From assembly GCA_023953775.1 (NCBI GenBank), contig JAMLJD010000002.1, positions 39,245-103,244 of the forward strand: DNA of 64,000 nt, given 5' to 3'. The number at the start of each line of letters is the position of its first letter. Position 1 is the stretch's first letter. Made by a program: the position numbers and the translations under genes. Positions 7,329-19,581 of this stretch are shown here, in pieces. This DNA comes from Rhizobiaceae bacterium. Its GTDB lineage: Bacteria > Pseudomonadota > Alphaproteobacteria > Rhizobiales > Rhizobiaceae. The notes under the pieces were generated by a model. That model was given only the letters and a program-made list of their open reading frames with translations, had not been told where the DNA came from and did not search any database.

Positions 7329-8336
7329 ATGCAGAATCCGATCGACGCCCTTCTTGCCGAAAAGGGCGTACTCCTGGCCGACGGCGCGACCGGCACGAAT
7401 CTCTTTGCAATGGGTCTCGAGGCCGGCGACGCGCCGGAACTCCTGAACGAGACCGCGCCAGACACGATTGCGGCGCTGCATCAGGGCTTCGTCGATGCCG
7501 GCGCTGACATCATCCTCACCAATTCCTTCGGCGGCACACGGCAACGCCTGAAGCTGCACCACGCGCAGGATCGCGTCCGTGACCTCAACCGCAAGGCCGC
7601 CGAGATCGCCTGCGCAGTGGCCGGCAAGGCCGGCCGGCGCGTTATCGTCGCGGGCTCCGTCGGCCCGACGGGCGAACTGCTCCAGCCTTTGGGTGCGCTC
7701 AGCTACCAGGAAGCGGTGGAAGCCTTCGCCGAACAGATCGAAGGTTTGAAGGAAGGCGGCGCCGAGGTCGCCTGGATCGAGACGATGTCGGCACCTGACG
7801 AGATACGAGCCGCAGCGGAAGCTGCCATCCTCGTTGGCCTCCCCTACACGTATACGGGGTCGTTCGACACGGCCGGCCGCACCATGATGGGCCTCCTGCC
7901 GAAGGACATCCACGCCGTAGCGGATGGCCTGGGAGAAGCGCCGGTCGCCGTCGGCGCGAATTGCGGCGTCGGCGCCTCGGACATCCTGGCGTCGCTCCTG
8001 GATATGACCGCCGAGAAGCCAGGGGCCACCCACATCGTTAAGGGCAATTGCGGCATTCCGGAATTCCGCGGGTCGGAAATCCACTATTCGGGTACGCCCG
8101 AGCTGATGGCCGACTACGCGCGCATGGCAGTCGATTCCGGTGCACGCATTATCGGCGGCTGCTGCGGTACGTCCTTCGCGCATCTGGCAGCGATGCGCCA
8201 GGCGCTGGACACGCACGCCAGGGCGGCGCGTCCGAGCACGAGCGATATCGTCGATCGCATCGGTCCGCTGCGCAACAAGATAGCCGCAGAAGTGCCGGAA
8301 GGCAGCCGGCGCGAGCGCCGCCGCGCGCGGGCCTGA
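7329..8336 (+). CDS. Homocysteine S-methyltransferase family protein (betaine-homocysteine methyltransferase-like)
   Basis: The ORF carries LLADGATGTNLF, ADIILTNSFGG, GANCG and the C-terminal IIGGCCGTS zinc-ligand pattern of the Hcy-binding (S-methyl_trans) domain. Confidence 0.85.
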   Translation: MQNPIDALLAEKGVLLADGATGTNLFAMGLEAGDAPELLNETAPDTIAALHQGFVDAGADIILTNSFGGTRQRLKLHHAQDRVRDLNRKAAEIACAVAGKAGRRVIVAGSVGPTGELLQPLGALSYQEAVEAFAEQIEGLKEGGAEVAWIETMSAPDEIRAAAEAAILVGLPYTYTGSFDTAGRTMMGLLPKDIHAVADGLGEAPVAVGANCGVGASDILASLLDMTAEKPGATHIVKGNCGIPEFRGSEIHYSGTPELMADYARMAVDSGARIIGGCCGTSFAHLAAMRQALDTHARAARPSTSDIVDRIGPLRNKIAAEVPEGSRRERRRARA

Positions 8337-8359
8337 TACCCGAGCGCAGCAGGCTTTCC

Positions 8360-8944
8360 CTACAGATCCTCCAGGTCCCGCCGGACCTTCTTCAAGAGGT
8401 CGCGCGCGGTTTCGGCCTGTTCAGGCGTCCACGAACCGCTGCGCAGCCGTGAAAACACCGCCCAGCGCAGGGCACGGAACTCGTCGCCAATCGCGACGCC
8501 GCTCATCTTGGCCGATGCGCCGTCGATGCCGGCATTGATGCGGTCGAGTTCGGCCGCATGCTCTTCGAGAAACGCCTGTCCGGCCTCGGTGATCGCGTAG
8601 AGGCGTTTGTTGCCGTCGGCTTGCGATGACACCAGGTCGGCCTCTTCCAGCATCTGAAGCATCGGATAGATCGCGCCGGGGCTCGGGCTGTACGCGCCCT
8701 GGAACCGCGCCTCGAGTGCCTTGATGATGTCGTAGCCGTGCCGCGGCTCCTCGGCGATCAGTCCGAGCACCACAAGCCGCAGCGCACCGGAATCGAAGCG
8801 CCCTCCCCGACCTCCGAACGGCCCGCCGTGCCGGCCGCCGAAGCCGCCGCCGCGCCCGCGTCCGCCGCCGTGGCGGCCGGGGCCGCCGCCATGGCCGCTC
8901 ATTCGCCACTCGCCGCGCCAGGAATTGCAGGATTTGTGAAACAT
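8360..8944 (-). CDS. PadR-family transcriptional regulator with an N-terminal Gly/Arg-rich tail
   Basis: The winged helix is LRLVVLGLIAEEPRHGYDIIKALEARFQGAYSPSPGAIYPMLQMLEEADLV. It is preceded by GHGGGPGRHGGGRGRGGGFGGRHGGPFGGRGGRFD. I chose the start at 8944 because AAGGAG lies 7 nt upstream. The ORF stays open to 8986. Confidence 0.8.
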   Translation of the reverse strand: MFHKSCNSWRGEWRMSGHGGGPGRHGGGRGRGGGFGGRHGGPFGGRGGRFDSGALRLVVLGLIAEEPRHGYDIIKALEARFQGAYSPSPGAIYPMLQMLEEADLVSSQADGNKRLYAITEAGQAFLEEHAAELDRINAGIDGASAKMSGVAIGDEFRALRWAVFSRLRSGSWTPEQAETARDLLKKVRRDLEDL

Positions 8945-8971
8945 TCTCATTCTCCTTATCGTCATATCTGC

Positions 8972-8995
8972 GATATATCTATTCAACGATATATC
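8972..8995. promoter_or_regulatory. Two copies of the self-complementary octamer GATATATC upstream of the PadR gene
   Basis: GATATATC occurs at 8972-8979 and 8988-8995, 16 nt centre to centre, in an AT-rich patch 30-50 nt upstream of the chosen PadR start. It is a candidate autoregulatory operator. Confidence 0.35.
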
Positions 8996-9068
8996 TTTTT
9001 ACAAGGAGAATTCGTCGACACCGGGAAAGCTGCCTTCGGCTTCAAAGGCTGCCGTGAGCGAACGGGAT

Positions 9069-9101
9069 AAAAAAAGAGCCGGCAGGTTTCCCTGCCGGCT
9101 C
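9069..9101 (-). terminator. Rho-independent terminator after the sigma/vWA operon
   Basis: The minus strand reads GGAGCCGGCAGG-GAAA-CCTGCCGGCTC followed by TTTTTTT. It lies about 70 nt downstream of the vWA stop codon. Confidence 0.7.
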
Positions 9102-9172
9102 CGCCTCACCCACCCTGACGGATCCGCGCCGCCAAACGATCCCAAAGAACGCGGACCCGCCGATATTGCCAC

Positions 9173-11170
9173 CTACCGCCTGCTGTCGAGCGCCGAGGCA
9201 AGGCGCACAAGCGAGAGGAACTCCGCCCTGTACCCGTAAGGGTCGGAGCCACGCGCGGCGGTGGCAATCTGCATGATCCTGTCGTAGTCGAAGCTGGCCG
9301 TCTGGTCGGTCTTGCGCAGCTTCTGGCCGAAGGCTGCAACGGCGATCGAGAAGCGCACGTCCTGTGCAGCGTTCGCGAAACTGTCGACTTCGTTCGCGGC
9401 CGTCACGGGCGTCGTGATCAGCTTCGAGACATCCTCGCCCGGAAGCTTGTAACGAATCTTGACGAAGGCATATTCGTCCGACGTATCGCCGACAGCGGGC
9501 TTGGCGTCGTCCTGGCCGTAGCGCAAATCGTCGATCAGCTCGGCCGGGCTTCCGTTCGGCGTGATCTCGTAAATGGCCGTCACGGAATGGCCGGAGCCGA
9601 TATCGCCGGCGTCGACGCGATCGTTGTTGAAGTCCTCGCGGTTCAGCGCGCGGGTCTCGTAGCCGATCAGCCGGTATTCCGAGACCTGCTGCGGATTGAA
9701 CTCGACCTGGATCTTCACGTCGTTGGCGATCGGGAACATGGTCGACCCGGCCTCCTGGACGAGGGTCTTTTCCGCTTCCGCCAGCGTGTCGATATAGGCC
9801 GCCGTGCCGTTGCCGTTCTGCGCAATGGTCTGCATCATCTGGTCGTTTAGATTGCCGCGGCCGAAGCCGAACACCGACAGATAGACGCCGCTTTCACGCT
9901 TCTCCTCGATCAGCCTCTTCAGCTCGTCGTCGGAGGTCTGCCCGATGTTGAAGTCGCCGTCGGTTGCCAGCATGACGCGGTTGACGCCATCCTTCACGAA
10001 GCTCTTCTCGGCGAGCCTGTAGGCTTCCCGGATACCTTCCTCGCCGGCCGTCCGGCCACCGGCTTCCAGATTGTCGAGCGCGTCGAGGATCGCCGCCTTG
10101 TCCGACCCCTTGGCGTTCTCCAGGACCGTGCCGGCATTGCCCGCATAGGTGACGATAGACACCGTGTCGTCGGCATCGAGCCTGTCGACCAGCAGCCGGA
10201 ACGCGTTCTTGAGCAGCGGCAGCTTGTCGGGCGCGTTCATCGAGCCGGAAACGTCGAGCAGGAATACGAGGTTCGACTTCGGCTTTTCGGCCGGCTTCAC
10301 ATCATATCCCTTGATCGCGACATGCATCAGCTTGGTGTGGTCGTTCCACGGGCTCGGCGTCACGGTGATCGTCGAATTGAAGGGCTGGTCGGCACCTTCC
10401 GGGCCGCGCCAGTCATAGGGGAAGTAGTTGATCATCTCCTCGACGCGCACGGCGTCGGGGTTGGGCATCACGCCTTCCTTCAGCGTGCGCCGGACGAGTG
10501 CATAGGACGCGGTATCGACGTCGATCGAGAAGGTCGAGACCGGGTTCTCGAGTGCCGAGCGCACCGGATTGGTGTCGAAATTCTCGAACCGGTCGCGGGA
10601 CTCTTCCTCGACGACCACCGGGTCGGGCACGGCCACGTTCGGTTGCGGCGATACCATCGTCTTACTGTGGCCGCCCAGCGACTGGCGATACATGCGATCC
10701 CGCGCCGCGCCTGTCGCAGGCAGGGCCGGTGCCGGGCTCTCCGACGCGACGCCGTCGAAAGACAGCTCCCGCGCGGCTTCGTCGGCTTCGCCATCCGCCC
10801 GCTTGTCGGCAAGCTTGCCGACCGGCTCGGGCTTCGGCGCCTGCTCGCGGGTCTCCTTCTGGTCGAGCGGCGGCATGCCGATATTCACCGTGTCCAGCAT
10901 CTGCCAGCCGACATAGCCGGCGATCGGCAGTGCGACGAGACCGGCGATCGCCGGGGTTGCCATCAGCTTCTTTTCCATCATCCCGCTCCAGATGTTTGCC
11001 ATTCTGTCGCTGAGACGACGGCCCGCCGCCGATCCTTTGGGTATGCTCGAATTTTTTTCCGCGTCGAAGCTTTCGAGCGCCGCCTCTACGGCACGCGCAC
11101 GCGCGTCACGGCCGGGTCCGGGGACCGGGGCACTGCGCAGCATCTTCAGATCATCGTCGTTCATCGTCAC
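9173..11170 (-). CDS. Membrane-anchored von Willebrand factor A protein (YfbK-like), putative anti-sigma or signal-sensing partner of the upstream ECF sigma factor
   Basis: The 665-aa ORF has about 65 cytoplasmic residues, one TM span (LMATPAIAGLVALPIAGYVGW) and a Pro/Glu-rich linker. A vWA-interacting block (VSTFSIDVDTASYALVRR...INYFPYDW) follows. The vWA MIDAS motif is LVFLLDVSGSM...TDGDFN. A DUF3520-like tail is also present. The start overlaps the sigma gene stop (ATGA). Confidence 0.9.
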   Translation of the reverse strand: MTMNDDDLKMLRSAPVPGPGRDARARAVEAALESFDAEKNSSIPKGSAAGRRLSDRMANIWSGMMEKKLMATPAIAGLVALPIAGYVGWQMLDTVNIGMPPLDQKETREQAPKPEPVGKLADKRADGEADEAARELSFDGVASESPAPALPATGAARDRMYRQSLGGHSKTMVSPQPNVAVPDPVVVEEESRDRFENFDTNPVRSALENPVSTFSIDVDTASYALVRRTLKEGVMPNPDAVRVEEMINYFPYDWRGPEGADQPFNSTITVTPSPWNDHTKLMHVAIKGYDVKPAEKPKSNLVFLLDVSGSMNAPDKLPLLKNAFRLLVDRLDADDTVSIVTYAGNAGTVLENAKGSDKAAILDALDNLEAGGRTAGEEGIREAYRLAEKSFVKDGVNRVMLATDGDFNIGQTSDDELKRLIEEKRESGVYLSVFGFGRGNLNDQMMQTIAQNGNGTAAYIDTLAEAEKTLVQEAGSTMFPIANDVKIQVEFNPQQVSEYRLIGYETRALNREDFNNDRVDAGDIGSGHSVTAIYEITPNGSPAELIDDLRYGQDDAKPAVGDTSDEYAFVKIRYKLPGEDVSKLITTPVTAANEVDSFANAAQDVRFSIAVAAFGQKLRKTDQTASFDYDRIMQIATAARGSDPYGYRAEFLSLVRLASALDSRR

Positions 11171-11730
11171 TCATCCCCGGCCGAAGCCATCATCTGCTTC
11201 AGCCGCTTCTTTGCCTCGTGCACGTGCCACGACACCGTGGGCTCCGCGAGCCCCATTACGTCGGCGGCATCGGCATGGCTCAGTCCCTCGCCATAGACCA
11301 GCGTGACGGCGTCGCGCTGCTTGTCCGGAAGCTGGCGCACCGCCGCCCACAGCCGGCCGGCCGCATCGTCGGGCTCTTCGGCCACTTCGCCGTCGATCAG
11401 CGCCTGCGCGCCGTATTCCTTTGCCTTTCGTGCCTCGCGCGCGCCCTTGCGGGCCATGTCGCGCACGGCGTTGAGCGTCAGGGCATAGAGCCAGGTGGTG
11501 AACCGCCCCGCGCCCTTGAAGCCGCGGATGGCACGGCCGAGACGCACGCAGACCTCCTGCGCGATGTCCTCGGCGTCCGCTCGGTTGCCCGCGAGGCGAT
11601 AGGCGACCCGGTAGACGTAGTCGTAGTGGCGTTCGACCAGCGCGGCGAAAGCCGCCCGGTCGCCGGCAATCGCGCCTGCCACCAGCGTCTCGTCAGGTTG
11701 GTCACTGTCTTCCAGCGTCATTGCCATCAT
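11167..11730 (-). CDS. ECF (sigma-70 group IV) RNA polymerase sigma factor
   Basis: Region 2 reads FAALVERHYDYVYRVAYRLAGNRADAEDIAQEV.VRL. Region 4 reads LPDKQRDAVTLVYGEGLSHADAADVMGLAEPTVSWHVHEAKKRLK. Confidence 0.9.
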   Translation of the reverse strand: MMAMTLEDSDQPDETLVAGAIAGDRAAFAALVERHYDYVYRVAYRLAGNRADAEDIAQEVCVRLGRAIRGFKGAGRFTTWLYALTLNAVRDMARKGAREARKAKEYGAQALIDGEVAEEPDDAAGRLWAAVRQLPDKQRDAVTLVYGEGLSHADAADVMGLAEPTVSWHVHEAKKRLKQMMASAGDE

Positions 11731-11855: not shown

Positions 11856-12524
11856 TCACCGGGCGTAGGCGCGCATGATGAAAGCCTGCATTTCGGCGGG
11901 ATAGCGATAGTCGAGGCCATACGGGCAGGCATTGCGAGCGAGGCATCCCCCTGCCCGGCACGCGCCGCCCCGGACACCTTTGACATGCGCCACGCAACGA
12001 CCGTAGGCGAAGTCAGGCCCGGCGAACGCCTCGACGGGACAGGCGGAAAGACAGGGTTTTCCGTGACATGCGTCGCACAGGTGAATCGGTTTGTGAACCG
12101 GCGGAAAGCCCAAAGGCGTTGCGAAGGCGAGAGCCCCGCGAAAGGCGTGCCACAGTCCGTATTCGGGATGAATGAGGATGCCGAGCGGCGACGCCTCGAG
12201 CCTGGCTGCGCGGCGCGCCCATTGCTGGAACGGCGGGAAAGGCCGCTCGTTGGGCATGATCAGGCGCGCCCCGAACGTTTCGCCGACCCGGCCGATGACT
12301 TCCGCCGACCATGTGTCGAGCGGATCGGCCATCACGTCCGGCTGCCGTTCGACCCAGGCCGTGAATTCGGACCAGAACGTGCCTCCGGCGTTGCCGACCA
12401 GCGCGATCGACTGAGCGGGTCTTCCGGAAGGTCCATCCAGCTCGTCCTCACCGGGTTCGAGATCGAAGCCGCCGAAAAGCGTCAGCCGATTGCGTGCCAG
12501 GGCGGCTGCAAGCGCGTCGCGCAT
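11856..12524 (-). CDS. 4Fe-4S ferredoxin-like protein
   Basis: The 222-aa ORF has Cys clusters CDACHGKPCLSACP and CRAGGCLARNACPYG. The family beyond being Fe-S binding is not resolved. Confidence 0.55.
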   Translation of the reverse strand: MRDALAAALARNRLTLFGGFDLEPGEDELDGPSGRPAQSIALVGNAGGTFWSEFTAWVERQPDVMADPLDTWSAEVIGRVGETFGARLIMPNERPFPPFQQWARRAARLEASPLGILIHPEYGLWHAFRGALAFATPLGFPPVHKPIHLCDACHGKPCLSACPVEAFAGPDFAYGRCVAHVKGVRGGACRAGGCLARNACPYGLDYRYPAEMQAFIMRAYAR

Positions 12525-13265: not shown

Positions 13266-13362
13266 GCAGATTGTCTCCCTGGCAAAGCCAGAGTTACCGT
13301 GCCGATCACATCCTGCAAGCCGTTTCGATACCGCTTCACCGTCGAGGTTCGATCGATACCGA

Positions 13363-13890
13363 TCAGGCGGAACGCACCATCCGCTTCAGGACATCGTTGC
13401 GCTTGACGAAATGGTGCCAGAGCGCTGCCGCGACATGCAGACCGACCACGGCGATGATGACGGGCTTCGCCATCTCGTGCACCTCGCCGGCATCATGGAT
13501 ACCGAAATACCAGGCGACACCGCCGCTGATCGGCATCCCCAGAATGACCAGATAAAGGATGCCGTGCGTCGCCCTCGCCGCCATCTTCAGCAGCCGGTGC
13601 TCGTCGGCCGGCGGCTCCGGTGCGCCACGGCGCAGCAGGACGACGACCCGCAACAGCGCCAGCACGAAAATCGCGATGCCGACATAGACATGGATATTGG
13701 CCCAGAACAGGTCTGCTTCGGCAGGCGTATTGCCCCGGCTGAAGGCGCGGTAAGCAGGCTTGATGTCCTCGCCCATGATAAGCTGGAAGATCACCAGCAC
13801 CGCGATGATCCAGTGGAGCGCGATCTGGGTGGTGGAATAGCCGGCAGGTTTGGTCGACATCGAGTTCAGGTCCAGTTGATGAAGGCGCAT
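13363..13890 (-). CDS. Cytochrome b561 family (CybB-like) membrane protein
   Basis: Four TM helices carry conserved haem-ligand histidines: ALHWIIAVLVIFQ, HVYVGIAIF, HGILYLVIL, HVAAALWHHF. Confidence 0.85.
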   Translation of the reverse strand: MRLHQLDLNSMSTKPAGYSTTQIALHWIIAVLVIFQLIMGEDIKPAYRAFSRGNTPAEADLFWANIHVYVGIAIFVLALLRVVVLLRRGAPEPPADEHRLLKMAARATHGILYLVILGMPISGGVAWYFGIHDAGEVHEMAKPVIIAVVGLHVAAALWHHFVKRNDVLKRMVRSA

Positions 13891-14065
13891 CGATATCCCG
13901 GAGCTTTACCGGGCCGCCTTGACCTCGGACAAGTTACGACTTGGTCATGAAAGACGACCGCCTCCCGCAATGGCGGTGGCCTCAGTCGTGGCCGCGGATC
14001 GCGCTACGCCAGACTTCCTTGTGGATGATGTCGGCCACTTTAGCCCGGCCGTCCGCGGGCCCTTT

Positions 14066-15634
14066 TCACGTGAAGGCGTCGGGCATCGATTCCTTCTTCT
14101 TCGCCACGAAATCCTTCAGTCCGTCGGCGATTCCCGCATCCAGCGAGGGCGCTTCGTAGGCATCGAGCCATTTGCGCGCGATCTCGTTGGCGCGCTGCGG
14201 CGCGGTCTTCTCGCCTTCCGCAAGCCACTGCTCGTAGGAATTGTTGTCGGCGATCGACGACCGGTAGAAGGCGGTCTGGAAGTTGGCTTGCGTATGGCTG
14301 CAGCCAAGATAGTGGCTGCCGGGCCCGACCTCGCGGATCGCATCCATCGCCTGCCCGTTCTCCGACAGGTCGACACCCTGCGCCAGCTTCTGCTGCATGC
14401 CGAGCTGGTCGACATCCATGATGAATTTCTCGTAGCAGGAGGCCAGTCCGCCCTCGAGCCAGCCGGCTGAGTGGAGAACGAAATTGGTGCCTGCCAGCAG
14501 CGTCGAGTTCAGCGTATTGGCGCTTTCATAGGCCGCCTGGGCGTCGGGAACCTTGGAAGCGCACAGCGAGCCGCCGGTACGGAACGGCAGGCCGAGCCGG
14601 CGCGCGAGCTGTGCCGCGCCATAGGAGACCAGCGCCGGTTCCGGCGTGCCGAAGGTCGGGGCGCCCGACTGCATCGAGATCGACGAGGCGAACGTGCCGA
14701 ACAGCACCGGCGCGCCGGGCCGGCAGAGCTGCGTGAAGGCCGCGCCCGCGAGAACCTCGGCGAGGATCTGCGTCAGCGTGCCGGCAACCGTCACCGGGCT
14801 CATGGCACCTGCGAGGATGAACGGCGTGATGATCGTCGCCTGGTTGGCGCGGGCATAGACCTTCGCCGCGCCGAGCATGGTTTCGTCGAACACCATCGGC
14901 GAATTGGCGTTGATCAGGTTGATGACGACCGTGTTGTCGTCGACGAACTGCTCGCCGAACAGGATCCTGGCCATCGCAACCGTATCCTCGGCGCGCTCGG
15001 GCGCGGTCACCGACCCCATGAACGGCTTGTCCGACAGCGTCATGTGCGCATGCACCATGTCGAGGTGACGCTTGTTCACCGGCACGTCGACCGGCTCACA
15101 CACGGTACCCCCCGAATGATGGATCGACGGCGCCAGGTAGGCGAGCTTCACGAAATTGCGGAAATCCTCGATCGTGGCGTAGCGACGGTTGCCGTCGAGG
15201 TCGCGCACGAAGGGCGGACCGTAGACCGGAGCAAAGACGGTAGCGTCGCCGCCGATCTGAACCGACCGCTCGGGATTGCGTGCATGCTGGGTGAACACCG
15301 GCGGCGCGGTCTTCAACAGTTCGCGGCACAGGCCCTTGGGAAAATGCACGCGCTCGCCCTGGACGTCGGCGCCGGCCTCCTTCCACATCGCCAGCGCTTC
15401 GGCGTCGTCGCGGAACTCGATGCCGATCTCCTCGAGGACCCGGTCGGCATTGGCCTCGATCAGCGCGATGCCTTCCTCGTCGAGAACCTCGTAAACCTTT
15501 ATGCTGCGGCGGATATAGGTAAGTTGCTGCCCCGGCCCGCCACCGGAACGCGCGGCGCGGCGCGCGCTAGCCCCGCCCCGGTCGCCACGGCCCCGCCTTC
15601 CTCCCGAAAGCTCGGCTTCATTGATCTGGTTCAT
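14066..15634 (-). CDS. MttB-superfamily methyltransferase of the non-pyrrolysine type (quaternary-amine:corrinoid methyltransferase-like)
   Basis: The ORF is 523 codons from ATG 15634 with no internal stop or TAG. It has typical MttB-family blocks (VFAPVYGPPFV, NLINANSPMVFD, ITPFILAGAMSPVT, HSAGWLEGGL) and an RG-rich N-terminus. Confidence 0.9.
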   Translation of the reverse strand: MNQINEAELSGGRRGRGDRGGASARRAARSGGGPGQQLTYIRRSIKVYEVLDEEGIALIEANADRVLEEIGIEFRDDAEALAMWKEAGADVQGERVHFPKGLCRELLKTAPPVFTQHARNPERSVQIGGDATVFAPVYGPPFVRDLDGNRRYATIEDFRNFVKLAYLAPSIHHSGGTVCEPVDVPVNKRHLDMVHAHMTLSDKPFMGSVTAPERAEDTVAMARILFGEQFVDDNTVVINLINANSPMVFDETMLGAAKVYARANQATIITPFILAGAMSPVTVAGTLTQILAEVLAGAAFTQLCRPGAPVLFGTFASSISMQSGAPTFGTPEPALVSYGAAQLARRLGLPFRTGGSLCASKVPDAQAAYESANTLNSTLLAGTNFVLHSAGWLEGGLASCYEKFIMDVDQLGMQQKLAQGVDLSENGQAMDAIREVGPGSHYLGCSHTQANFQTAFYRSSIADNNSYEQWLAEGEKTAPQRANEIARKWLDAYEAPSLDAGIADGLKDFVAKKKESMPDAFT

Positions 15635-15730
15635 CGCGCTGTCCTCGACATCACATTGCGTGCATAGCACGGCACTTTCGCCGGACTGTAGCCCCCCGCC
15701 CTTTTGTGAACGGTCAGGCAACGCCAAGGC

Positions 15731-15748
15731 CTGTCGCAATATCGACAG
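15731..15748. promoter_or_regulatory. Inverted repeat in the divergent MttB/corrinoid promoter region
   Basis: The repeat is CTGTCG-CAATAT-CGACAG. It lies about 100 nt upstream of the MttB start and about 140 nt upstream of the corrinoid gene start. Confidence 0.25.
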
Positions 15749-15890
15749 CAAACGGCATTGAAACGCCAGTCGTTTTCGTTTTGCATGACGTCGCAATCCG
15801 GCTATGAGCGTGGACGCGCGCCAGATTATGAATGGCGTGGGTGATGCGCCGCCAATGCACCCGCCGCTTCGCGGACTGAAGGAGCTTTCG

Positions 15891-16589
15891 ATGGCCGACG
15901 ACGAGATCATCCTTTCCGAGCTTCCCGACGACGAACTCGTGCAGCAGATGCACGACGACCTCTATGACGGTCTCAAGGAAGAGATCGAGGAAGGAACCCG
16001 GATCCTGCTCGATCGCGGATGGGCGCCCTACAAGGTCCTGACCGAGGCCCTTGTCGAGGGCATGCGCATCGTCGGCGAGGATTTCCGCGACGGCATCCTG
16101 TTCGTGCCAGAAGTGCTTCTGTCCGCCAACGCGATGAAGGCCGGCATGTCGATCCTGCGCCCGTTGCTCGCCGCCACCGGCGCGCCGAAGCAGGGCAAGA
16201 TGGTGATCGGCACCGTGAAGGGCGACATCCACGATATCGGCAAGAATCTCGTCGGCATGATGATGGAAGGCGCCGGCTTCGATGTCGTCGACCTCGGCAT
16301 CAACAACCCGGTCGAGAACTACCTGGCTGCGATCGAGGAACATCAGCCGGATATCGTCGGAATGTCGGCGCTGCTGACAACGACCATGCCCTACATGAAG
16401 GTCGTGATCGACACGATGAAGGAAAAGGGCATTCGCGACGAGTTCATCGTGCTGGTCGGTGGAGCGCCGCTAAACGAGGAATTCGGCCGCGCTGTGGGTG
16501 CCGATGCATATTGTCGCGACGCCGCTGTGGCCGTCGAGACGGCCAAGGACCTTGTCAAGCGCCGCCACAACCAGCGCAGCGCGGTCTAA
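15891..16589 (+). CDS. Cobalamin-binding corrinoid protein (MtbC/MtgC-like)
   Basis: The ORF has the B12-binding_2 helical cap plus a Rossmann domain. The DxHxxG signature is present (VKGDIHDIGKNLV), along with SALLTTT and GGAPL. AAGGAG lies 7 nt upstream of ATG 15891. Confidence 0.9.
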   Translation: MADDEIILSELPDDELVQQMHDDLYDGLKEEIEEGTRILLDRGWAPYKVLTEALVEGMRIVGEDFRDGILFVPEVLLSANAMKAGMSILRPLLAATGAPKQGKMVIGTVKGDIHDIGKNLVGMMMEGAGFDVVDLGINNPVENYLAAIEEHQPDIVGMSALLTTTMPYMKVVIDTMKEKGIRDEFIVLVGGAPLNEEFGRAVGADAYCRDAAVAVETAKDLVKRRHNQRSAV

Positions 16590-16608
16590 CGCGAAAGCCG
16601 CGCCTGCG

Positions 16609-16764
16609 TTACTCGGCGGCGGTCGCGAGTTCGTTTCCGGCATCCTCGACGGCGTTGACCGCATTTGCGCCGTCCCGGCCCAAGCCGCGAATGGTGTTGG
16701 CGCAGCCCGCCGTGAAGGCGACGATCGCGAGGACTGCGGCAAGGCGCTTGAAGGTGGTGGACAT
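16609..16764 (-). CDS. Entericidin EcnA/B-family small lipoprotein
   Basis: The 51-aa ORF reads MSTTFKRLAAVLAIVAFTAGCANTIRGLGRDGANAVNAVEDAGNELATAAE. It has the lipobox FTAG|C and the entericidin-like C-N-T-x-x-G-x-G-x-D pattern. Confidence 0.65.
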   Translation of the reverse strand: MSTTFKRLAAVLAIVAFTAGCANTIRGLGRDGANAVNAVEDAGNELATAAE

Positions 16765-16818
16765 GATCGAACTCCAGGCTGATGGTCGCGCTCCGTCGGA
16801 GAGCGCAAACGGACGCTG

Positions 16819-17439
16819 ATGAAACGCGCCGCGCCGGAAAAGGTTCTGGTCATCGCCTGCGGAATGATCGCGCGCGAGGTTCTGGCCGTAAAGGACGCGC
16901 TGAAGCTCGATCACATCGACCTCACCTGCCTGCCCGCCGACTTTCACTATTATCCCGACCGAATCCCCGCCGCGATGGACGAGGCGATAGTCGAGGCCAG
17001 GGCCGCCGGATACCGCCATGTCTTTGCTGGCTACGCCGACTGCGGCACCGGGGGGCAACTCGACCGCGTGCTGGAGCGCCACGGTGTCGAGCGCGTCGCG
17101 GGACCGCACTGCTTCGCCTTCTATCAGGGGCTCGATGCCTTCGCGGAGATCGAGGATGCGGACATGACCACCTTCTACATGACCGACTTCCTCTGCCGCC
17201 AGTTCGATGCCTTTTTCATGCGGCCGCTCGGCCTCGACCGGCATCCGGAACTGGCCAAGGACTTCTTCGGCAACTACGAGAAGGTCGTTTACCTCGCGCA
17301 GACCGACGATCCCGCGCTCGATGCGGTTGCAGAAAACGCCGCGCGATGGCTCGGCCTCGCCTACGAAAAGCGCCGTACCGGCTACGGCGACCTTGCGCCC
17401 GCCCTTCGCGAGGCCGCTCGCAGGGCGCCGACTTCTTAG
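16819..17439 (+). CDS. DUF1638 domain protein
   Basis: The 206-aa ORF begins VLVIACGMIAREV...LPADFHYYPDRIP and continues FAGYADCGTGGQLD...GPHCFAFY. I recall this pattern as DUF1638, a family often adjacent to corrinoid methyltransferase genes. Confidence 0.75.
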   Translation: MKRAAPEKVLVIACGMIAREVLAVKDALKLDHIDLTCLPADFHYYPDRIPAAMDEAIVEARAAGYRHVFAGYADCGTGGQLDRVLERHGVERVAGPHCFAFYQGLDAFAEIEDADMTTFYMTDFLCRQFDAFFMRPLGLDRHPELAKDFFGNYEKVVYLAQTDDPALDAVAENAARWLGLAYEKRRTGYGDLAPALREAARRAPTS

Positions 17440-17528
17440 CGGGCCGCCGAATGGCAACCCGTCTTCCGGCTGTTGTGGCAGCATCCTTACGTTGATGCAC
17501 CAAACACATGCGGGGGAGAGAGAAAAGA

Positions 17529-18098
17529 ATGCCTGAAATCGTCGCGACTGTGCTGTGGAGACGCCTCGATACAGCGGGCCACGATGCCTGCCGCCTCGTC
17601 AGGACCGACGAAGGCTGGAGCCTCGCAGGTGCTGCGGTGTTCGACCACGAGGGTAGCACCTGCATGCTCGACTACACCGTCGATTGCGATGCACGATGGC
17701 ACACGCAGCGCGCGTCGGTGCATGGATCCGTGGGCTTCGAGCCGCTGGATTTCGAGATCGAACGCACGCGTGACGGAGAGTGGTTGCTCGACGGCCGGCG
17801 GCAGGCCACCGCGGCCGGATGCATCGACCTTGACCTCGGCTTCACGCCGGCAACGAACCTTCTCCCGATCCGCCGCATTGCGATGGAGCCCGGCGTCGAG
17901 GTTCCGGCGCGGGCCGCCTACTATCTGGAATTCACGCGCGAACTAGGGCTGATCGAGCAGATCTACCGCCACGAAGGGAGCGGCACGATCGCCTACGCCT
18001 CGCCTGCGCACGACTATGCAGCGACGCTGAGTGTCCACGAAACGGGATTCGTCACCGACTATCCGGAGCTATGGTCGGGCACGGTGTCGGCGGCGTGA
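17529..18098 (+). CDS. Putative glycolipid-binding domain protein (DUF1089-like)
   Basis: The ORF contains VLWRRLDTAGHDACRL...GWSL.G.AVF and LDLGFTPATNLLPIRR. ATG 17529 follows a GGGGGAGAGAG ribosome-binding site. Confidence 0.65.
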   Translation: MPEIVATVLWRRLDTAGHDACRLVRTDEGWSLAGAAVFDHEGSTCMLDYTVDCDARWHTQRASVHGSVGFEPLDFEIERTRDGEWLLDGRRQATAAGCIDLDLGFTPATNLLPIRRIAMEPGVEVPARAAYYLEFTRELGLIEQIYRHEGSGTIAYASPAHDYAATLSVHETGFVTDYPELWSGTVSAA

Positions 18099-18201
18099 CC
18101 AGCCGACCCCAGCGACGGGCGCATCGTTGCCGGCGCGGCCCGGACCACGAAACCGCCTGATTCCGGGCGTCCTCTCGGGTCGCTTTTCTAGGGGGAACGC
18201 C

Positions 18202-18780
18202 ATGCCCGCCCGCGCCATCGTCCTGTCCGCCGTCCTTTTTGTGCAGGCTGGTACGGCCTTTGCCACGGGCGAGATCGAGAACCTGATCACCGACGCCGAC
18301 CGGACCCGGCTCGACGGCTACGAAGCCACGCGCAAGGAGGCCCTGGCCGAGGCCAGGGATATGGGCCAGCCAGGCGATCTCGCGACACTGGAAGCGATGA
18401 TGTCAGGCGAGCCGCAAAGCTTCTCCGCCGTTGATTTGACCGGCGAATGGAAGTGCCGCACCGCAAAGGCCGGCGGCCTGGCCGGCCTGGTGATCTACGG
18501 ATGGTTCAATTGTCGCGTCACCGACGACGGTTCCGGCTGGCGGCTGGAAAAGCTGTCCGGATCGCAGCGCACGACGGGACGCTTCTTCACCGAAAGCGAT
18601 ACGCGACTGATCTATCTCGGATCGTTCTACGTCTCCGGCGAAGACGCGCCGGCCTATGGCAGCGGGCCGCAGAGCGATCAGGTCGGCTACGCGTATCTGA
18701 CGGAATCCAACCACTGGAGGATCGAGTTTCCGGCACCTACCTATGAATCGAAGCTGGATATTCTCGAATTGCGCCGTTAG
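18202..18780 (+). CDS. DUF4893-like secreted protein
   Basis: The signal peptide is MPARAIVLSAVLFVQAGTAFA. Later motifs are GEWKCRT.K.GG and FNCRV...GWRLEKLSGSQR. Confidence 0.65.
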   Translation: MPARAIVLSAVLFVQAGTAFATGEIENLITDADRTRLDGYEATRKEALAEARDMGQPGDLATLEAMMSGEPQSFSAVDLTGEWKCRTAKAGGLAGLVIYGWFNCRVTDDGSGWRLEKLSGSQRTTGRFFTESDTRLIYLGSFYVSGEDAPAYGSGPQSDQVGYAYLTESNHWRIEFPAPTYESKLDILELRR

Positions 18781-18856
18781 TGAACCGACAACCGGAAGCC
18801 GGCCCGCATCGCTCACCGGGCGTTAACACCATGTCGGCACAATTGCCGCAAGGGAA

Positions 18857-19534
18857 ATGGGGCGCCGTCCGCGGACGGAACGAATGAAACAGGAAACGCA
18901 ACATCCGCAAGCCGTTGCGCGCGTCTTCCATCCATCGATGGCCGCGCCGCGCCGCCTGTCGCAGGTGCTGCGCGAACTCGCCGACGGTGCGAAGGACGGC
19001 ATTACGGTCGCCCAGCTGCGCGACGCGCTCGGCGATCGCGGCTTCGCCGCGCTCTTTTTCATCTTCTCGGCCATCAATCTTCTTCCGCTGCCGCCCGGCA
19101 CCTCCGTCATTCTCGGCATTCCGATGATCATCGTCGCGTTCCAGATGGTGGCCGGCTACAAGAACGCGTGGCTGCCGCGATTTCTGCTGGCAAAGACCAT
19201 AGGGCCGAAGCAGATGGCGCGCATGCGCAGCGGTCTCATCCCCCGGCTCGAACGGGTCGAACGCGTGATCCAGCCGCGATACTGGCCCTTCCCGCGCAAT
19301 TCCGCCGACAGGATCATCGGCGTCATCGGCCTCATCCTCGCGATCGCCGTGACCCTTCCGGTCCCGCTCGGGAACTGGCTCCCGGCGCTCGCCGCCACGC
19401 TCGTGGCGCTCGGCCTCATGGAGCGCGACGGCATCGTGCTGGGCGTCGGCGTCGCGGTCGGCGCGGTATCGCTCGCCATCATCGCCGCCGTCGTCGGAAT
19501 GGCCGGCGCACTCGCTTCGGTGATATTCGGATAA
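18857..19534 (+). CDS. exoD: ExoD-family exopolysaccharide synthesis membrane protein
   Basis: The ORF contains ITVAQLRDALGDRGFAALFFIFSAINLLPLPPGTSVILGIPMIIVAFQM..G....WLPRF. The start is uncertain and could be the ATG at 18884. Confidence 0.8.
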   Translation: MGRRPRTERMKQETQHPQAVARVFHPSMAAPRRLSQVLRELADGAKDGITVAQLRDALGDRGFAALFFIFSAINLLPLPPGTSVILGIPMIIVAFQMVAGYKNAWLPRFLLAKTIGPKQMARMRSGLIPRLERVERVIQPRYWPFPRNSADRIIGVIGLILAIAVTLPVPLGNWLPALAATLVALGLMERDGIVLGVGVAVGAVSLAIIAAVVGMAGALASVIFG

Positions 19535-19550
19535 GGTTTCCGTCTACCGC

Positions 19551-19581
19551 TTGACCTTCCAGTCACTGGAAGGCCTACCTG
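19551..19581 (+). promoter_or_regulatory. CueR/HmrR (MerR-family) type copper-responsive promoter-operator
   Basis: TTGACC (19551-19556) is followed by a 19-nt spacer and TACCTG (19576-19581). The perfect 9-1-9 palindrome CCTTCCAGT-C-ACTGGAAGG (19555-19573) lies within. It matches the E. coli PcopA CueR site (CCTTCC-N7-GGAAGG, 19-bp spacer). Confidence 0.75.

Follow-up and report, generated by a model that had tools for sequence, protein, structure and literature searches.

The window examined here, 64 kb of DNA, carries a gene for an MttB-superfamily methyltransferase together with genes for a corrinoid protein and a DUF1638 protein in a rhizobial, Phyllobacteriaceae-like background, and it raises the question of how such a cluster could operate in an aerobe when the usual partner enzymes are not encoded nearby. 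Our analysis showed that the cluster matches a published aerobic Mtg system and need no longer be regarded as an orphan. It is likely to represent the core (MtgB, MtgC and DUF1638, with MtgE 6 kb off) of an aerobic alphaproteobacterial cobalamin-dependent glycine betaine demethylase/split methionine synthase, whose metF2-mtgD-ramA genes have been displaced. Every feature named by the sequence-only reading was confirmed at its stated position; these and further features are listed in Table 1.

Table 1. Features of the mtg region (positions in the window).
Feature	Position	Strand	Basis or remark
MtgE, stand-alone homocysteine S-methyltransferase (S. meliloti Bmt type)	7329..8336	+	Pfam S-methyl_trans E 6e-62
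Predicted MMACHC/QueG-fold protein, two 4Fe-4S-type cysteine motifs, 222 aa	11856..12524	-	AlphaFold and Foldseek, synteny
Cytochrome b561	13363..13890	-	175 bp downstream of MttB, same strand
MtgB-like non-pyrrolysine MttB-superfamily methyltransferase	14066..15634	-	Pfam MTTB, no internal stop codons
Intergenic divergent promoter region mtgB/mtgC	15635..15890		Perfect palindrome CTGTCGCAATATCGACAG at 15731-15748
MtgC-type corrinoid (cobalamin-binding) protein, methyl carrier	15891..16589	+	Pfam B12-binding_2 and B12-binding
Entericidin-type lipoprotein, 51 aa	16609..16764	opposite to mtgC/DUF1638	Lies in the mtgC-DUF1638 gap
DUF1638 protein, candidate accessory factor for cobalamin-dependent methyl transfer	16819..17439	+	Pfam DUF1638 E 1.6e-22
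Synteny breakpoint	19535..19581		tblastn of window genes vs 80 related loci

Core genes

The MttB ORF is full-length (522 aa plus stop, 523 codons), contains no in-frame TAG, TGA or TAA, and covers positions 2-500 of the 500 in the Pfam MTTB profile (E 1.3e-234), in agreement with the sequence-only reading, which had taken it for a non-pyrrolysine member of the family. PDB 4YYC, an entry titled "Putative trimethylamine methyltransferase" and presumably an S. meliloti protein, shares about 82% identity with the ORF product. Judged by similarity, the product is far nearer to the glycine betaine methyltransferase MtgB of D. hafniense (2QNE/9YCE; E 1e-122) than to the pyrrolysine-containing MttB (7XCL; 8e-37), and its score with NCBIfam TIGR02369 (277 bits) lies under the cutoff of 525. 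The gene probably encodes a quaternary amine:corrinoid methyltransferase with glycine betaine as the substrate.

The start codon of mtgC lies 256 bp from that of mttB on the opposite strand. The 232-aa product, as anticipated, carries the DxHxxG / SxL / GG signature (DIHDIG at residue 112, SAL at 159, GG at 190); it shares 82-93% identity with its homologues in Rhizobiales and Rhodobacterales (87-89% for Sinorhizobium, 82-85% for Rhodobacterales), and scores under the cutoffs of the NCBIfam models for MtgC of anaerobes. The DUF1638 gene (206 aa) begins 229 bp past the mtgC stop, downstream as had been claimed, yet this stretch is occupied by the lipoprotein gene. Seven DUF1638 residues (C14, C37, C75, C98, H32, H43, H97) are invariant among 117 sequences. 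The AlphaFold model (pLDDT 92) had no significant fold match among PDB structures; by analogy with systems in which DUF1638 is genetically tied to cobalamin-dependent methyl transfer (PMC5764234, PMC12478193), the protein is a candidate for reactivation or cofactor handling.

Within the species, MttB and MtgC have dN/dS values of 0-0.02 and DUF1638 has 0.08-0.10, the values of 0-0.02 being measured at dS ~0.12 between strains with a common rearranged junction. Purifying selection acts strongly on all three genes, which are therefore in use. In the divergent promoter region, the pattern of palindrome CTGTCGCAATATCGACAG, a candidate operator, occurs once in the window versus 0.03 occurrences expected by chance; a single copy of TGTCGCAAWATCGACA stands at the same position upstream of mtgC in strain-level metagenome contigs as well as in 14 genome loci of Phyllobacteriaceae.

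Gene neighborhood and partner genes

Neither a methyl-corrinoid:tetrahydrofolate (THF) methyltransferase nor RamA is encoded in the 64 kb, as noted before: Pfam scans of about 57 ORFs spanning the window revealed no Pterin_bind, MtrH, RACo/DUF4445 or MTHFR domains, and the MetF2, MtgD and RamA proteins of Sinorhizobium medicae, used as tblastn queries, gave no window match at E<=1e-5. RamA was also sought from the same metagenome samples and none was found. The neighborhood was compared in 80 related loci, 58 of which retain the order mttB<->mtgC->DUF1638, and 48 of which have full flanks and a divergent MttB. DUF1638, whose co-occurrence the sequence-only reading had proposed to check, lies downstream of mtgC in 72 of the 80 loci and in all 48 fully flanked ones. 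In 46-47 of these 48 genomes, metF2-mtgD-ramA is located within 10 kb downstream of mtgC (MtgD in 47, RamA in 46); in S. medicae, genes for MTHFR, Pterin_bind and RACo proteins follow within 8 kb.

The window is collinear with its relatives from position ~5.2 kb up to exoD, after which synteny breaks. Past exoD, the relatives continue into metF2-mtgD-ramA, while the window lineage has there a Cu-ATPase gene and, over about 44 kb, unrelated genes for catabolism and transport. A junction of exoD with a large ORF is also carried by L086 and L089, two strain-level metagenome contigs. Because the break comes just after exoD, metF2-mtgD-ramA is regarded as displaced in the window lineage, and most likely resides elsewhere in the genome; the earlier picture of a pathway with missing partners thus arose from a local break. 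In Rhodobacterales, these partner genes are usually held at separate loci (PMC12478193).

The stand-alone homocysteine methyltransferase, earlier suggested as the methyl acceptor, fits the published MtgE/split-MetH model (PMC5764234, PMC12478193), in which terms it would accept the methyl group from methyl-MtgC, yielding methionine. It exceeds the cutoff of NCBIfam NF005718 (552 bits vs 338) and resembles the homocysteine domain of MetH (1Q7M; 7e-41) more than BHMT (2.5e-10). In 49 of the 80 loci, its gene lies upstream of mtgC at a distance of no more than 10 kb. The protein contains C212, C278 and C279, as well as C95 and C241; the first three we take, by analogy with MetH and BHMT, to be candidate Zn ligands.

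A candidate cobalamin-processing protein

One gene missed by the earlier reading, at 11856-12524, emerged as a candidate cobalamin-processing or -reducing component. Its product exceeded the threshold of none of the Pfam and NCBIfam families; Pfam MMACHC was sub-threshold in relatives (best E 1e-5) and gave nothing for the window protein itself. With the AlphaFold model (pLDDT 97), all 29 Foldseek matches at E<=0.001 were MMACHC (best E 1.6e-6, TM ~0.58) or QueG (best 2e-5), followed by PceA from E 1.1e-3. Among 104 sequences, seven cysteines are invariant (C150, C153, C158, C162, C177, C194 and C200), and an eighth, C189, is conserved in at least 90%. In 45 of 58 loci, the gene follows that of the MttB orthologue directly on the same strand, less than 400 bp downstream, and in 51 of 58 it lies within 1.8 kb; in the window, cytochrome b561 and DLH genes intervene. 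The gene is absent from every mtgC-fetched locus without a divergently adjacent MttB orthologue, and adjacency to mttB is retained in two of three distant homologues (40-45% identity). It is under purifying selection in the window lineage. Our hypothesis is that the product, as an accessory of the mttB operon, would serve in processing or reducing the cobalamin cofactor.

Substrate

Three of the four glycine betaine contact residues of D. hafniense MtgB are retained in the MttB ORF (Y138, R352 and H388 for Y97, R312 and H348), while F356 is replaced by G396, as it is by Gly in 59 of 59 alphaproteobacterial orthologues. In D. hafniense MtgB, the F356L substitution raised Km several hundred-fold (PMC13080624), and no individual knockout or assay of an aerobic MtgB was found in the literature. 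Because of the Gly replacement, glycine betaine stays an inferred substrate, and the same machinery might instead demethylate proline betaine (stachydrine), carnitine, gamma-butyrobetaine or choline, which we consider rather unlikely. MtpB, MtcB, MtyB and MthB also do without the conserved aromatic pair while keeping R312 and H348 (PMC13080624); up to seven MttB paralogues per genome have unassigned substrates (PMC12478193), and additional paralogues were seen in three of our loci (L015, L036, L069). However, Y97, R312 and H348 are retained, the second aromatic could be provided by W392, a Trp that is invariant and stands four positions ahead of G396, and the window orthologue is the one conserved beside mtgC. 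Moreover, Mausz et al. attribute the S. meliloti cluster to glycine betaine, and, as they relate, Barra et al. (2006) deduced that this species has a second route of glycine betaine demethylation that does not depend on Bmt (PMC12478193).

Proposed pathway and alternatives

By homology to the D. hafniense enzyme, MtgB would bind a quaternary amine with a carboxylate group, glycine betaine being the most likely one, and pass one N-methyl group to Co(I) of MtgC-bound cobalamin. Methyl-Co(III)-MtgC could then follow two routes, drawn from published Ruegeria and Phaeobacter genetics and extended here to the window lineage: pterin-binding MtgD would form methyl-THF, to be oxidized by MetF2 for C1 metabolism, or MtgE with homocysteine would yield methionine. 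Adventitiously oxidized Co(II)-MtgC would be re-reduced by a RamA/RACo-type ATP-dependent activase, with DUF1638 as a further participant. The MMACHC/QueG-fold Fe-S protein would, as a hypothesis, handle or reduce the cofactor. A rearrangement or insertion after exoD presumably parted metF2-mtgD-ramA from the core, the block persisting elsewhere in the genome.

Alternatively, mtgD, ramA and metF2 could be truly lost, MtgB-MtgC-MtgE acting only as a cobalamin-dependent betaine:homocysteine methyltransferase whose cofactor is reduced without RamA by DUF1638 and/or the Fe-S protein. The absence of all three partners from a window where nearly all relatives have them, the retention of MtgE within the syntenic block, purifying selection on MttB, MtgC, DUF1638 and the Fe-S protein, and the junction shared by strain-level contigs are consistent with such truncation; nevertheless, a break in synteny need not mean loss, and with separate loci being normal in Rhodobacterales (PMC12478193), we find it improbable. 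That the cluster is a non-functional, decaying remnant is extremely improbable: the partners are absent from the window, but the ORFs are intact, and the dN/dS values in strains with the rearranged junction contradict decay.

The sequence-only reading had let DUF1638 stand in for the methyl-corrinoid:THF methyltransferase or activase, and cytochrome b561, 3' of MttB, provide an electron route. In favor of this model, the cytochrome gene is close to MttB on the same strand, and DUF1638 is a constant companion of mtgC. DUF1638 does belong to the system, in line with published genetics and proteomics; however, relatives hold it alongside canonical MtgD and RamA, not instead of them, and its model is not a TIM barrel, unlike pterin-binding methyltransferases. 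Cytochrome b561 adjoins MttB in just two of the 80 loci and evolves faster (dN/dS 0.16-0.42), and is not a conserved neighbor or component of the system. Contradicted by these neighborhood data, such gap filling is highly improbable, and displacement of the partner genes is preferred.

Comparison with known systems

The methyl-transfer chain in aerobic alphaproteobacteria, earlier considered not established, has in fact been described (Price 2018; Mausz 2025; PMC5764234, PMC12478193): a B12-dependent system of MtgB/MtgC/MtgD(/MtgE) demethylates glycine betaine and also serves as a split methionine synthase, with loci in Ruegeria pomeroyi (SPO2108/2134, SPO2160, SPO1863, SPO1884), Phaeobacter inhibens (PGA1_c13340-13370) and S. 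meliloti (around SMc04325-SMc04333). Knockouts of mtgC and mtgD in R. pomeroyi abolish both growth on glycine betaine and methionine prototrophy, and N-osmolytes induce MtgB, RamA and DUF1638 (PMC12478193). In Phaeobacter, the split methionine synthase was defined from transposon fitness data, together with its RamA-like and DUF1638 factors, both required by split MetH and co-occurring across Alphaproteobacteria (PMC5764234), and the two proteins have been linked to cobalamin reactivation (PMC5764234, PMC12478193). In S. meliloti, where the cluster was named explicitly in 2025 and Bmt is MtgE, mtgBCDE, reactivation modules and cob genes are colocalized (PMC12478193). The window shares with this system the MttB-family MtgB, MtgC (82-89% identical), DUF1638 directly after mtgC and a Bmt-type MtgE, and with Sinorhizobium the divergent mttB/mtgC order. 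It differs in that metF2-mtgD-ramA, adjoining in nearly all Rhizobiales relatives, is apart from the core, and in that its Phyllobacteriaceae-like lineage is known from metagenome contigs alone.

With D. hafniense MtgB/MtgC/MtgA and RamA and with E. limosum MtpB/MtcB/MtyB/MthB, the system has in common a three-component logic (MttB-superfamily substrate:corrinoid methyltransferase, corrinoid protein, methyl-corrinoid:THF methyltransferase) plus an ATP-dependent activase. In contrast to these anaerobic systems, the window host is an aerobe, the corrinoid protein, which scores under the cutoffs of the anaerobe MtgC families, also serves methionine synthesis, and DUF1638 is added. The relatives use a Pterin_bind/MetH-like MtgD as THF methyltransferase, whereas MtgA of D. 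hafniense reportedly has no sequence identity to known structures (PMC7154762).

The homocysteine, pterin and B12 modules of MetH correspond to MtgE, MtgD and MtgC, MtgE being closest to the homocysteine domain of T. maritima MetH (E 7e-41). Here, however, each module is a protein of its own, the AdoMet reactivation domain is replaced by a RamA-like protein and DUF1638 (PMC5764234), and the same corrinoid is also fed by an additional methyl-donor module, MtgB. The Fe-S protein, finally, shares its predicted fold with MMACHC (CblC), QueG and PceA and, like QueG and RdhA, has a C-terminal region with two ferredoxin-type Cys motifs, but differs from MMACHC, QueG and reductive dehalogenases in its small size, sub-threshold sequence similarity and genomic tie to mttB.

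Core genes of the cluster

The MttB-superfamily, corrinoid and DUF1638 genes named in the sequence-only reading lie where that reading placed them, and profile searches matched Pfam MTTB, B12-binding_2/B12-binding and DUF1638, respectively. The cytochrome b561 and homocysteine S-methyltransferase genes that it listed nearby are likewise real (Pfam).

Features of the mttB/mtgC region, in window coordinates
Feature	Position	Strand	Description
MtgE, homocysteine S-methyltransferase	7329-8336	+	NF005718, 552 bits vs 338 cutoff
ECF sigma factor and vWA/YfbK_C protein genes	9173-11730	-	
Predicted MMACHC/QueG-fold protein	11856-12524	-	222 aa; no family assignment (Pfam, NCBIfam)
Cytochrome b561	13363-13890	-	Pfam
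MttB-superfamily methyltransferase	14066-15634	-	522 aa; Pfam MTTB PF06253 end to end
Palindrome CTGTCGCAATATCGACAG	15731-15748		perfect; mttB/mtgC divergent promoter region
MtgC, corrinoid protein	15891-16589	+	232 aa; Pfam B12-binding_2 + B12-binding
Entericidin-domain lipoprotein	16609-16764	-	51 aa; antisense, in the 229-bp mtgC-DUF1638 spacer
DUF1638 protein	16819-17439	+	Pfam DUF1638, E 1.6e-22
exoD	18857-19534		last collinear gene
Region after exoD	19535-64000		no counterpart in any of 80 related loci

The corrinoid protein carries the claimed DxHxxG / SxL / GG signature as DIHDIG (residue 112), SAL (159) and GG (190), and is 82-85% identical to Rhodobacterales and 87-89% identical to Sinorhizobium homologues that occur in the published gene order. 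Domains, motifs and homologues all match MtgC of the aerobic MtgBCDE system (SPO2160 / PGA1_c13350 type). The protein scores below the cutoffs of the NCBIfam models for anaerobe MtgC, which agrees with the separate phylogenetic position given by Mausz et al. (PMC12478193). Conservation of MtgC is unusually high, with 82-93% amino acid identity between Rhizobiales and Rhodobacterales, while the adjoining DUF1638 protein reaches just 51-77% (window and related mtgC loci L005-L084).

The MttB protein covers profile positions 2-500 of 500 of PF06253 (E 1.3e-234). Its gene contains no internal TAG, as had been read from the sequence, and no internal stop codon of another kind, which places it in the non-pyrrolysine clade. 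Its score against the trimethylamine methyltransferase model TIGR02369 (trimeth_pyl) is 277 bits, below the cutoff of 525. It is far closer to the glycine betaine methyltransferase MtgB of D. hafniense (E 1e-122) than to the pyrrolysine MttB 7XCL (E 8e-37), and shares about 82% identity with PDB 4YYC, an S. meliloti protein whose deposition title is 'Putative trimethylamine methyltransferase'.

Glycine betaine is contacted in D. hafniense MtgB by Y97, R312, H348 and F356 (PMC13080624). The first three are kept in the MttB protein as Y138, R352 and H388, but F356 is replaced by G396, and since F356 is G396 we describe the protein as MtgB-like by sequence rather than as an equivalog of D. hafniense MtgB. 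The Y-R-H-G pattern is common to 59/59 alphaproteobacterial MttB orthologues, and W392, four residues before G396, is invariant. Retention of Y138, R352 and H388 supports a carboxylate-bearing quaternary amine as the substrate, with glycine betaine the most likely candidate; as one of the four contact residues is absent from the alphaproteobacterial MtgB clade, the substrate is still something that we infer. MttB paralogues in two related mtgC loci (L036 and L069) are also altered at the positions of Y97 or H348.

The homocysteine S-methyltransferase passes the NCBI equivalog model for the S. meliloti Bmt type (NF005718), as expected of MtgE. The MetH homocysteine domain is a closer match to it than animal BHMT, and it is 77-78% identical to the Sinorhizobium homologue found at the same position. 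Residues C212, C278 and C279 are present and, by analogy with MetH/BHMT, are candidate Zn ligands. The ECF sigma factor and vWA/YfbK_C genes between MtgE and the mttB operon stay close to the cluster in 31-32 of the related loci.

The palindrome CTGTCGCAATATCGACAG is a candidate operator. Its core TGTCGCAAWATCGACA is present as a single, identically placed copy in each of 14 Phyllobacteriaceae genome loci, and a second GTCGCAA repeat follows the palindrome after about 60 bp.

DUF1638

The spacer between mtgC and DUF1638 has the length read from the sequence but is not empty, as it holds the antisense entericidin gene. About 45 rhizobial loci have a homologue of this gene in the corresponding position, so that in Rhizobiales DUF1638 is probably not co-transcribed with mtgC.

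Four cysteines (C14, C37, C75, C98) and three histidines (H32, H43, H97) are invariant in an alignment of 117 DUF1638 sequences, pointing to a site for a metal or cluster. AlphaFold models the protein with confidence (pLDDT 92). A sequence search of the PDB gave zero matches to DUF1638, and a fold search of the PDB returned nothing significant (best E 2e-3, TM <0.5). Literature searches on the S. meliloti locus tags SMc04329-04333 yielded just a proteomics table, in which SMc04333 is listed as DUF1638. The role of the protein is known only from genetics, DUF1638 being required in Phaeobacter (PMC5764234), and from co-occurrence.

Gene neighbourhood and the absent partner genes

Neither a pterin-binding methyltransferase nor a RACo/RamA activase or MTHFR was found by Pfam among about 57 ORFs across the 64 kb, and tblastn with MetF2, MtgD and RamA of Sinorhizobium medicae gave no match in the window. 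The observation that a methyl-corrinoid:tetrahydrofolate methyltransferase (MtgD) and a RamA-like protein (Fer2 + RACo) are absent from this stretch is therefore confirmed. A neighbourhood survey with MtgC as query and one genome per species yielded 80 loci from Rhizobiales and Rhodobacterales; 48 of them had full 10-kb flanks and a divergent MttB.

Genes accompanying mtgC in related loci
Gene	All loci	Fully flanked loci with divergent MttB
DUF1638 after mtgC	72/80	48/48
Divergent MttB orthologue	58/80	48/48 (by selection)
MtgE, up to 10 kb upstream	49/80	36/48
MetF2 downstream	45/80	40/48
MtgD downstream	54/80	47/48
RamA downstream	55/80	46/48
Cytochrome b561	2/80	2/48

Given these counts and the Pfam assignments of the S. 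medicae downstream genes (MTHFR, Pterin_bind, RACo), canonical partners exist and are normally adjacent to the core. The sequence-only reading had offered DUF1638 as a stand-in for the absent enzymes. Constant co-occurrence of DUF1638 with the core was borne out in the fully flanked loci, though not across all 80; in the former it coexists with MtgD and RamA almost without exception, so that DUF1638 accompanies the canonical partners and is no replacement for them. Cytochrome b561, put forward as an electron route, is a neighbour in just two of the 80 loci and was rejected as a partner on neighbourhood conservation.

The absence of partners from the window reflects a local rearrangement. Collinearity of the window with its relatives begins at about 5.2 kb and runs up to exoD; after exoD the relatives continue into metF2 (MTHFR), mtgD and ramA, whereas in the window exoD is followed by a Cu-ATPase gene and roughly 44 kb of genes for catabolism and transport. 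In strain-level metagenome contigs, whose DUF1638 is 96% identical, a large ORF likewise begins about 78 bp beyond exoD, and the exoD junction is likely common to them and the window. Comparison of these strains gave dN/dS values of 0-0.02 (MttB and MtgC) and about 0.09 (DUF1638), with dS at about 0.1, and the MttB/MtgC/DUF1638 core is clearly in use. Because of the published co-occurrence, mtgD and ramA are likely to be located elsewhere in this genome. RamA was not found in the same metagenome samples, the four ENA-only matches to an Aquamicrobium RamA query all coming from other samples. Exact matches to MttB, ExoD and a DUF1638 variant were confined to short ENA metagenome contigs, and a megablast of 13300-18800 against the PLSDB plasmid collection gave no near-identical record. 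The 'missing partner' reading thus comes from the break after exoD, and the sequence-only interpretation as a whole is partly supported.

The region beyond the break contains the Cu-ATPase, acyl-CoA metabolism genes, monooxygenases and ABC/TRAP transporters, and its GC content is slightly lower (0.60-0.64 in most 2-kb windows vs about 0.65 upstream). Neither an integrase nor a transposase came up in Pfam scans of 19.5-64 kb, and since Rfam and tRNA scans across the whole window were empty, the synteny breakpoint is not marked by a riboswitch or tRNA. Just one other fully flanked locus, in MAG MFD01721.bin.2.219, has none of metF2, mtgD and ramA within 10 kb, and the MttB of that locus (8148-9619) is in six frame-shifted pieces, which could represent a pseudogene or long-read errors. 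In one strain-level metagenome contig (ENA ERZ27309172), a Radical_SAM gene (116-1198), which recalls the radical-SAM gene PGA1_c13360 of P. inhibens, lies divergently upstream of mtgC in place of MttB; this contig could be an assembly chimera.

A predicted cobalamin-binding protein of the mttB operon

In 45/58 loci the orthologue of the 222-aa protein is encoded directly downstream of the MttB orthologue, and in 51/58 it lies within 1.8 kb; none was found in mtgC-fetched loci that have no divergently adjacent MttB orthologue. Among three distant homologues (40-45% identity), two are likewise encoded immediately after an MttB gene. The MMACHC-fold family comprises about 1,200 clusters at 50% identity. 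In the window, cytochrome b561 and dienelactone hydrolase genes stand between this gene and mttB. In this lineage dN/dS of the gene is 0.15-0.18, which indicates purifying selection.

The protein has two 4Fe-4S-type Cys motifs, with a CxxCx4Cx3CP motif and four more cysteines. Of these eight, all but C189 are invariant among 104 sequences, and C189 is kept in at least 90% of them. Sequence similarity to MMACHC/QueG is sub-threshold: Pfam MMACHC (PF16690) gave E 0.042 and 13.9 bits vs the 27-bit cutoff, with sub-threshold matches in 8/11 and 17/104 relatives, and a profile search of the PDB reached QueG at E 5.6e-4. In Foldseek searches with the AlphaFold model (pLDDT 97), all 29 matches with E<=0.001 were human MMACHC or QueG (best MMACHC, E 1.6e-6, TM about 0.58), followed by the reductive dehalogenase PceA from E 1.1e-3, all of them cobalamin-binding proteins. 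The model thus predicts a nitroreductase-like cobalamin-binding fold.

We propose, purely as a hypothesis, that the cobalamin on which MtgC depends is processed or reduced by this protein. Loading or reduction of the cofactor by the protein, if it takes place, would go some way to explaining how aerobes keep an oxygen-sensitive Co(I) cycle running. Bacteria have been stated to have no CblC homologues (PMC5070874), and the papers on MtgBCDE (PMC5764234, PMC12478193) make no mention of an MMACHC/QueG-fold Fe-S gene. A further step, which we regard as a long shot, would make the protein a previously unrecognised bacterial cobalamin-processing or -reducing enzyme dedicated to MtgC that, together with the Cys4/His-rich DUF1638, may hold MtgC as Co(I) in air without RamA in this lineage. 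Were this linked pair true, MtgB, MtgC and MtgE would form a self-contained B12-dependent betaine:homocysteine methyltransferase.

Comparison with the aerobic MtgBCDE system

Methionine synthase of Phaeobacter inhibens is a split enzyme, with the homocysteine, pterin and B12 modules on separate proteins; it requires a RamA-like Fer2/DUF4445 protein as well as a DUF1638 protein encoded beside the B12 protein (Price et al., 2018, PMC5764234). In Ruegeria pomeroyi, MtgC and the pterin-binding MtgD are indispensable for making methionine and for growth on glycine betaine, and N-osmolytes induce MttB-family MtgB proteins as well as RamA and DUF1638 (Mausz et al., 2025, PMC12478193). The same work described colocalisation of MtgBCDE, two reactivation modules and the cob operon in S. 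meliloti and reinterpreted Bmt (SMc04325) as MtgE. The homocysteine methyltransferase and DUF1638, suspected in the sequence-only reading to be involved, accordingly belong to the system, as already published (PMC5764234, PMC12478193).

The cluster in the window is largely explained by the 2018 and 2025 work, so that, taken alone, it extends a system known mostly from marine bacteria by one Phyllobacteriaceae member from soil; its remaining value lies in the inferred substrate, in the chemistry behind DUF1638 and in the MMACHC-fold Fe-S gene of the mttB operon. It resembles the aerobic MtgBCDE system in MtgC, DUF1638 and MtgE, and differs from it in having neither MtgD nor a RamA-like activase within the 64 kb.
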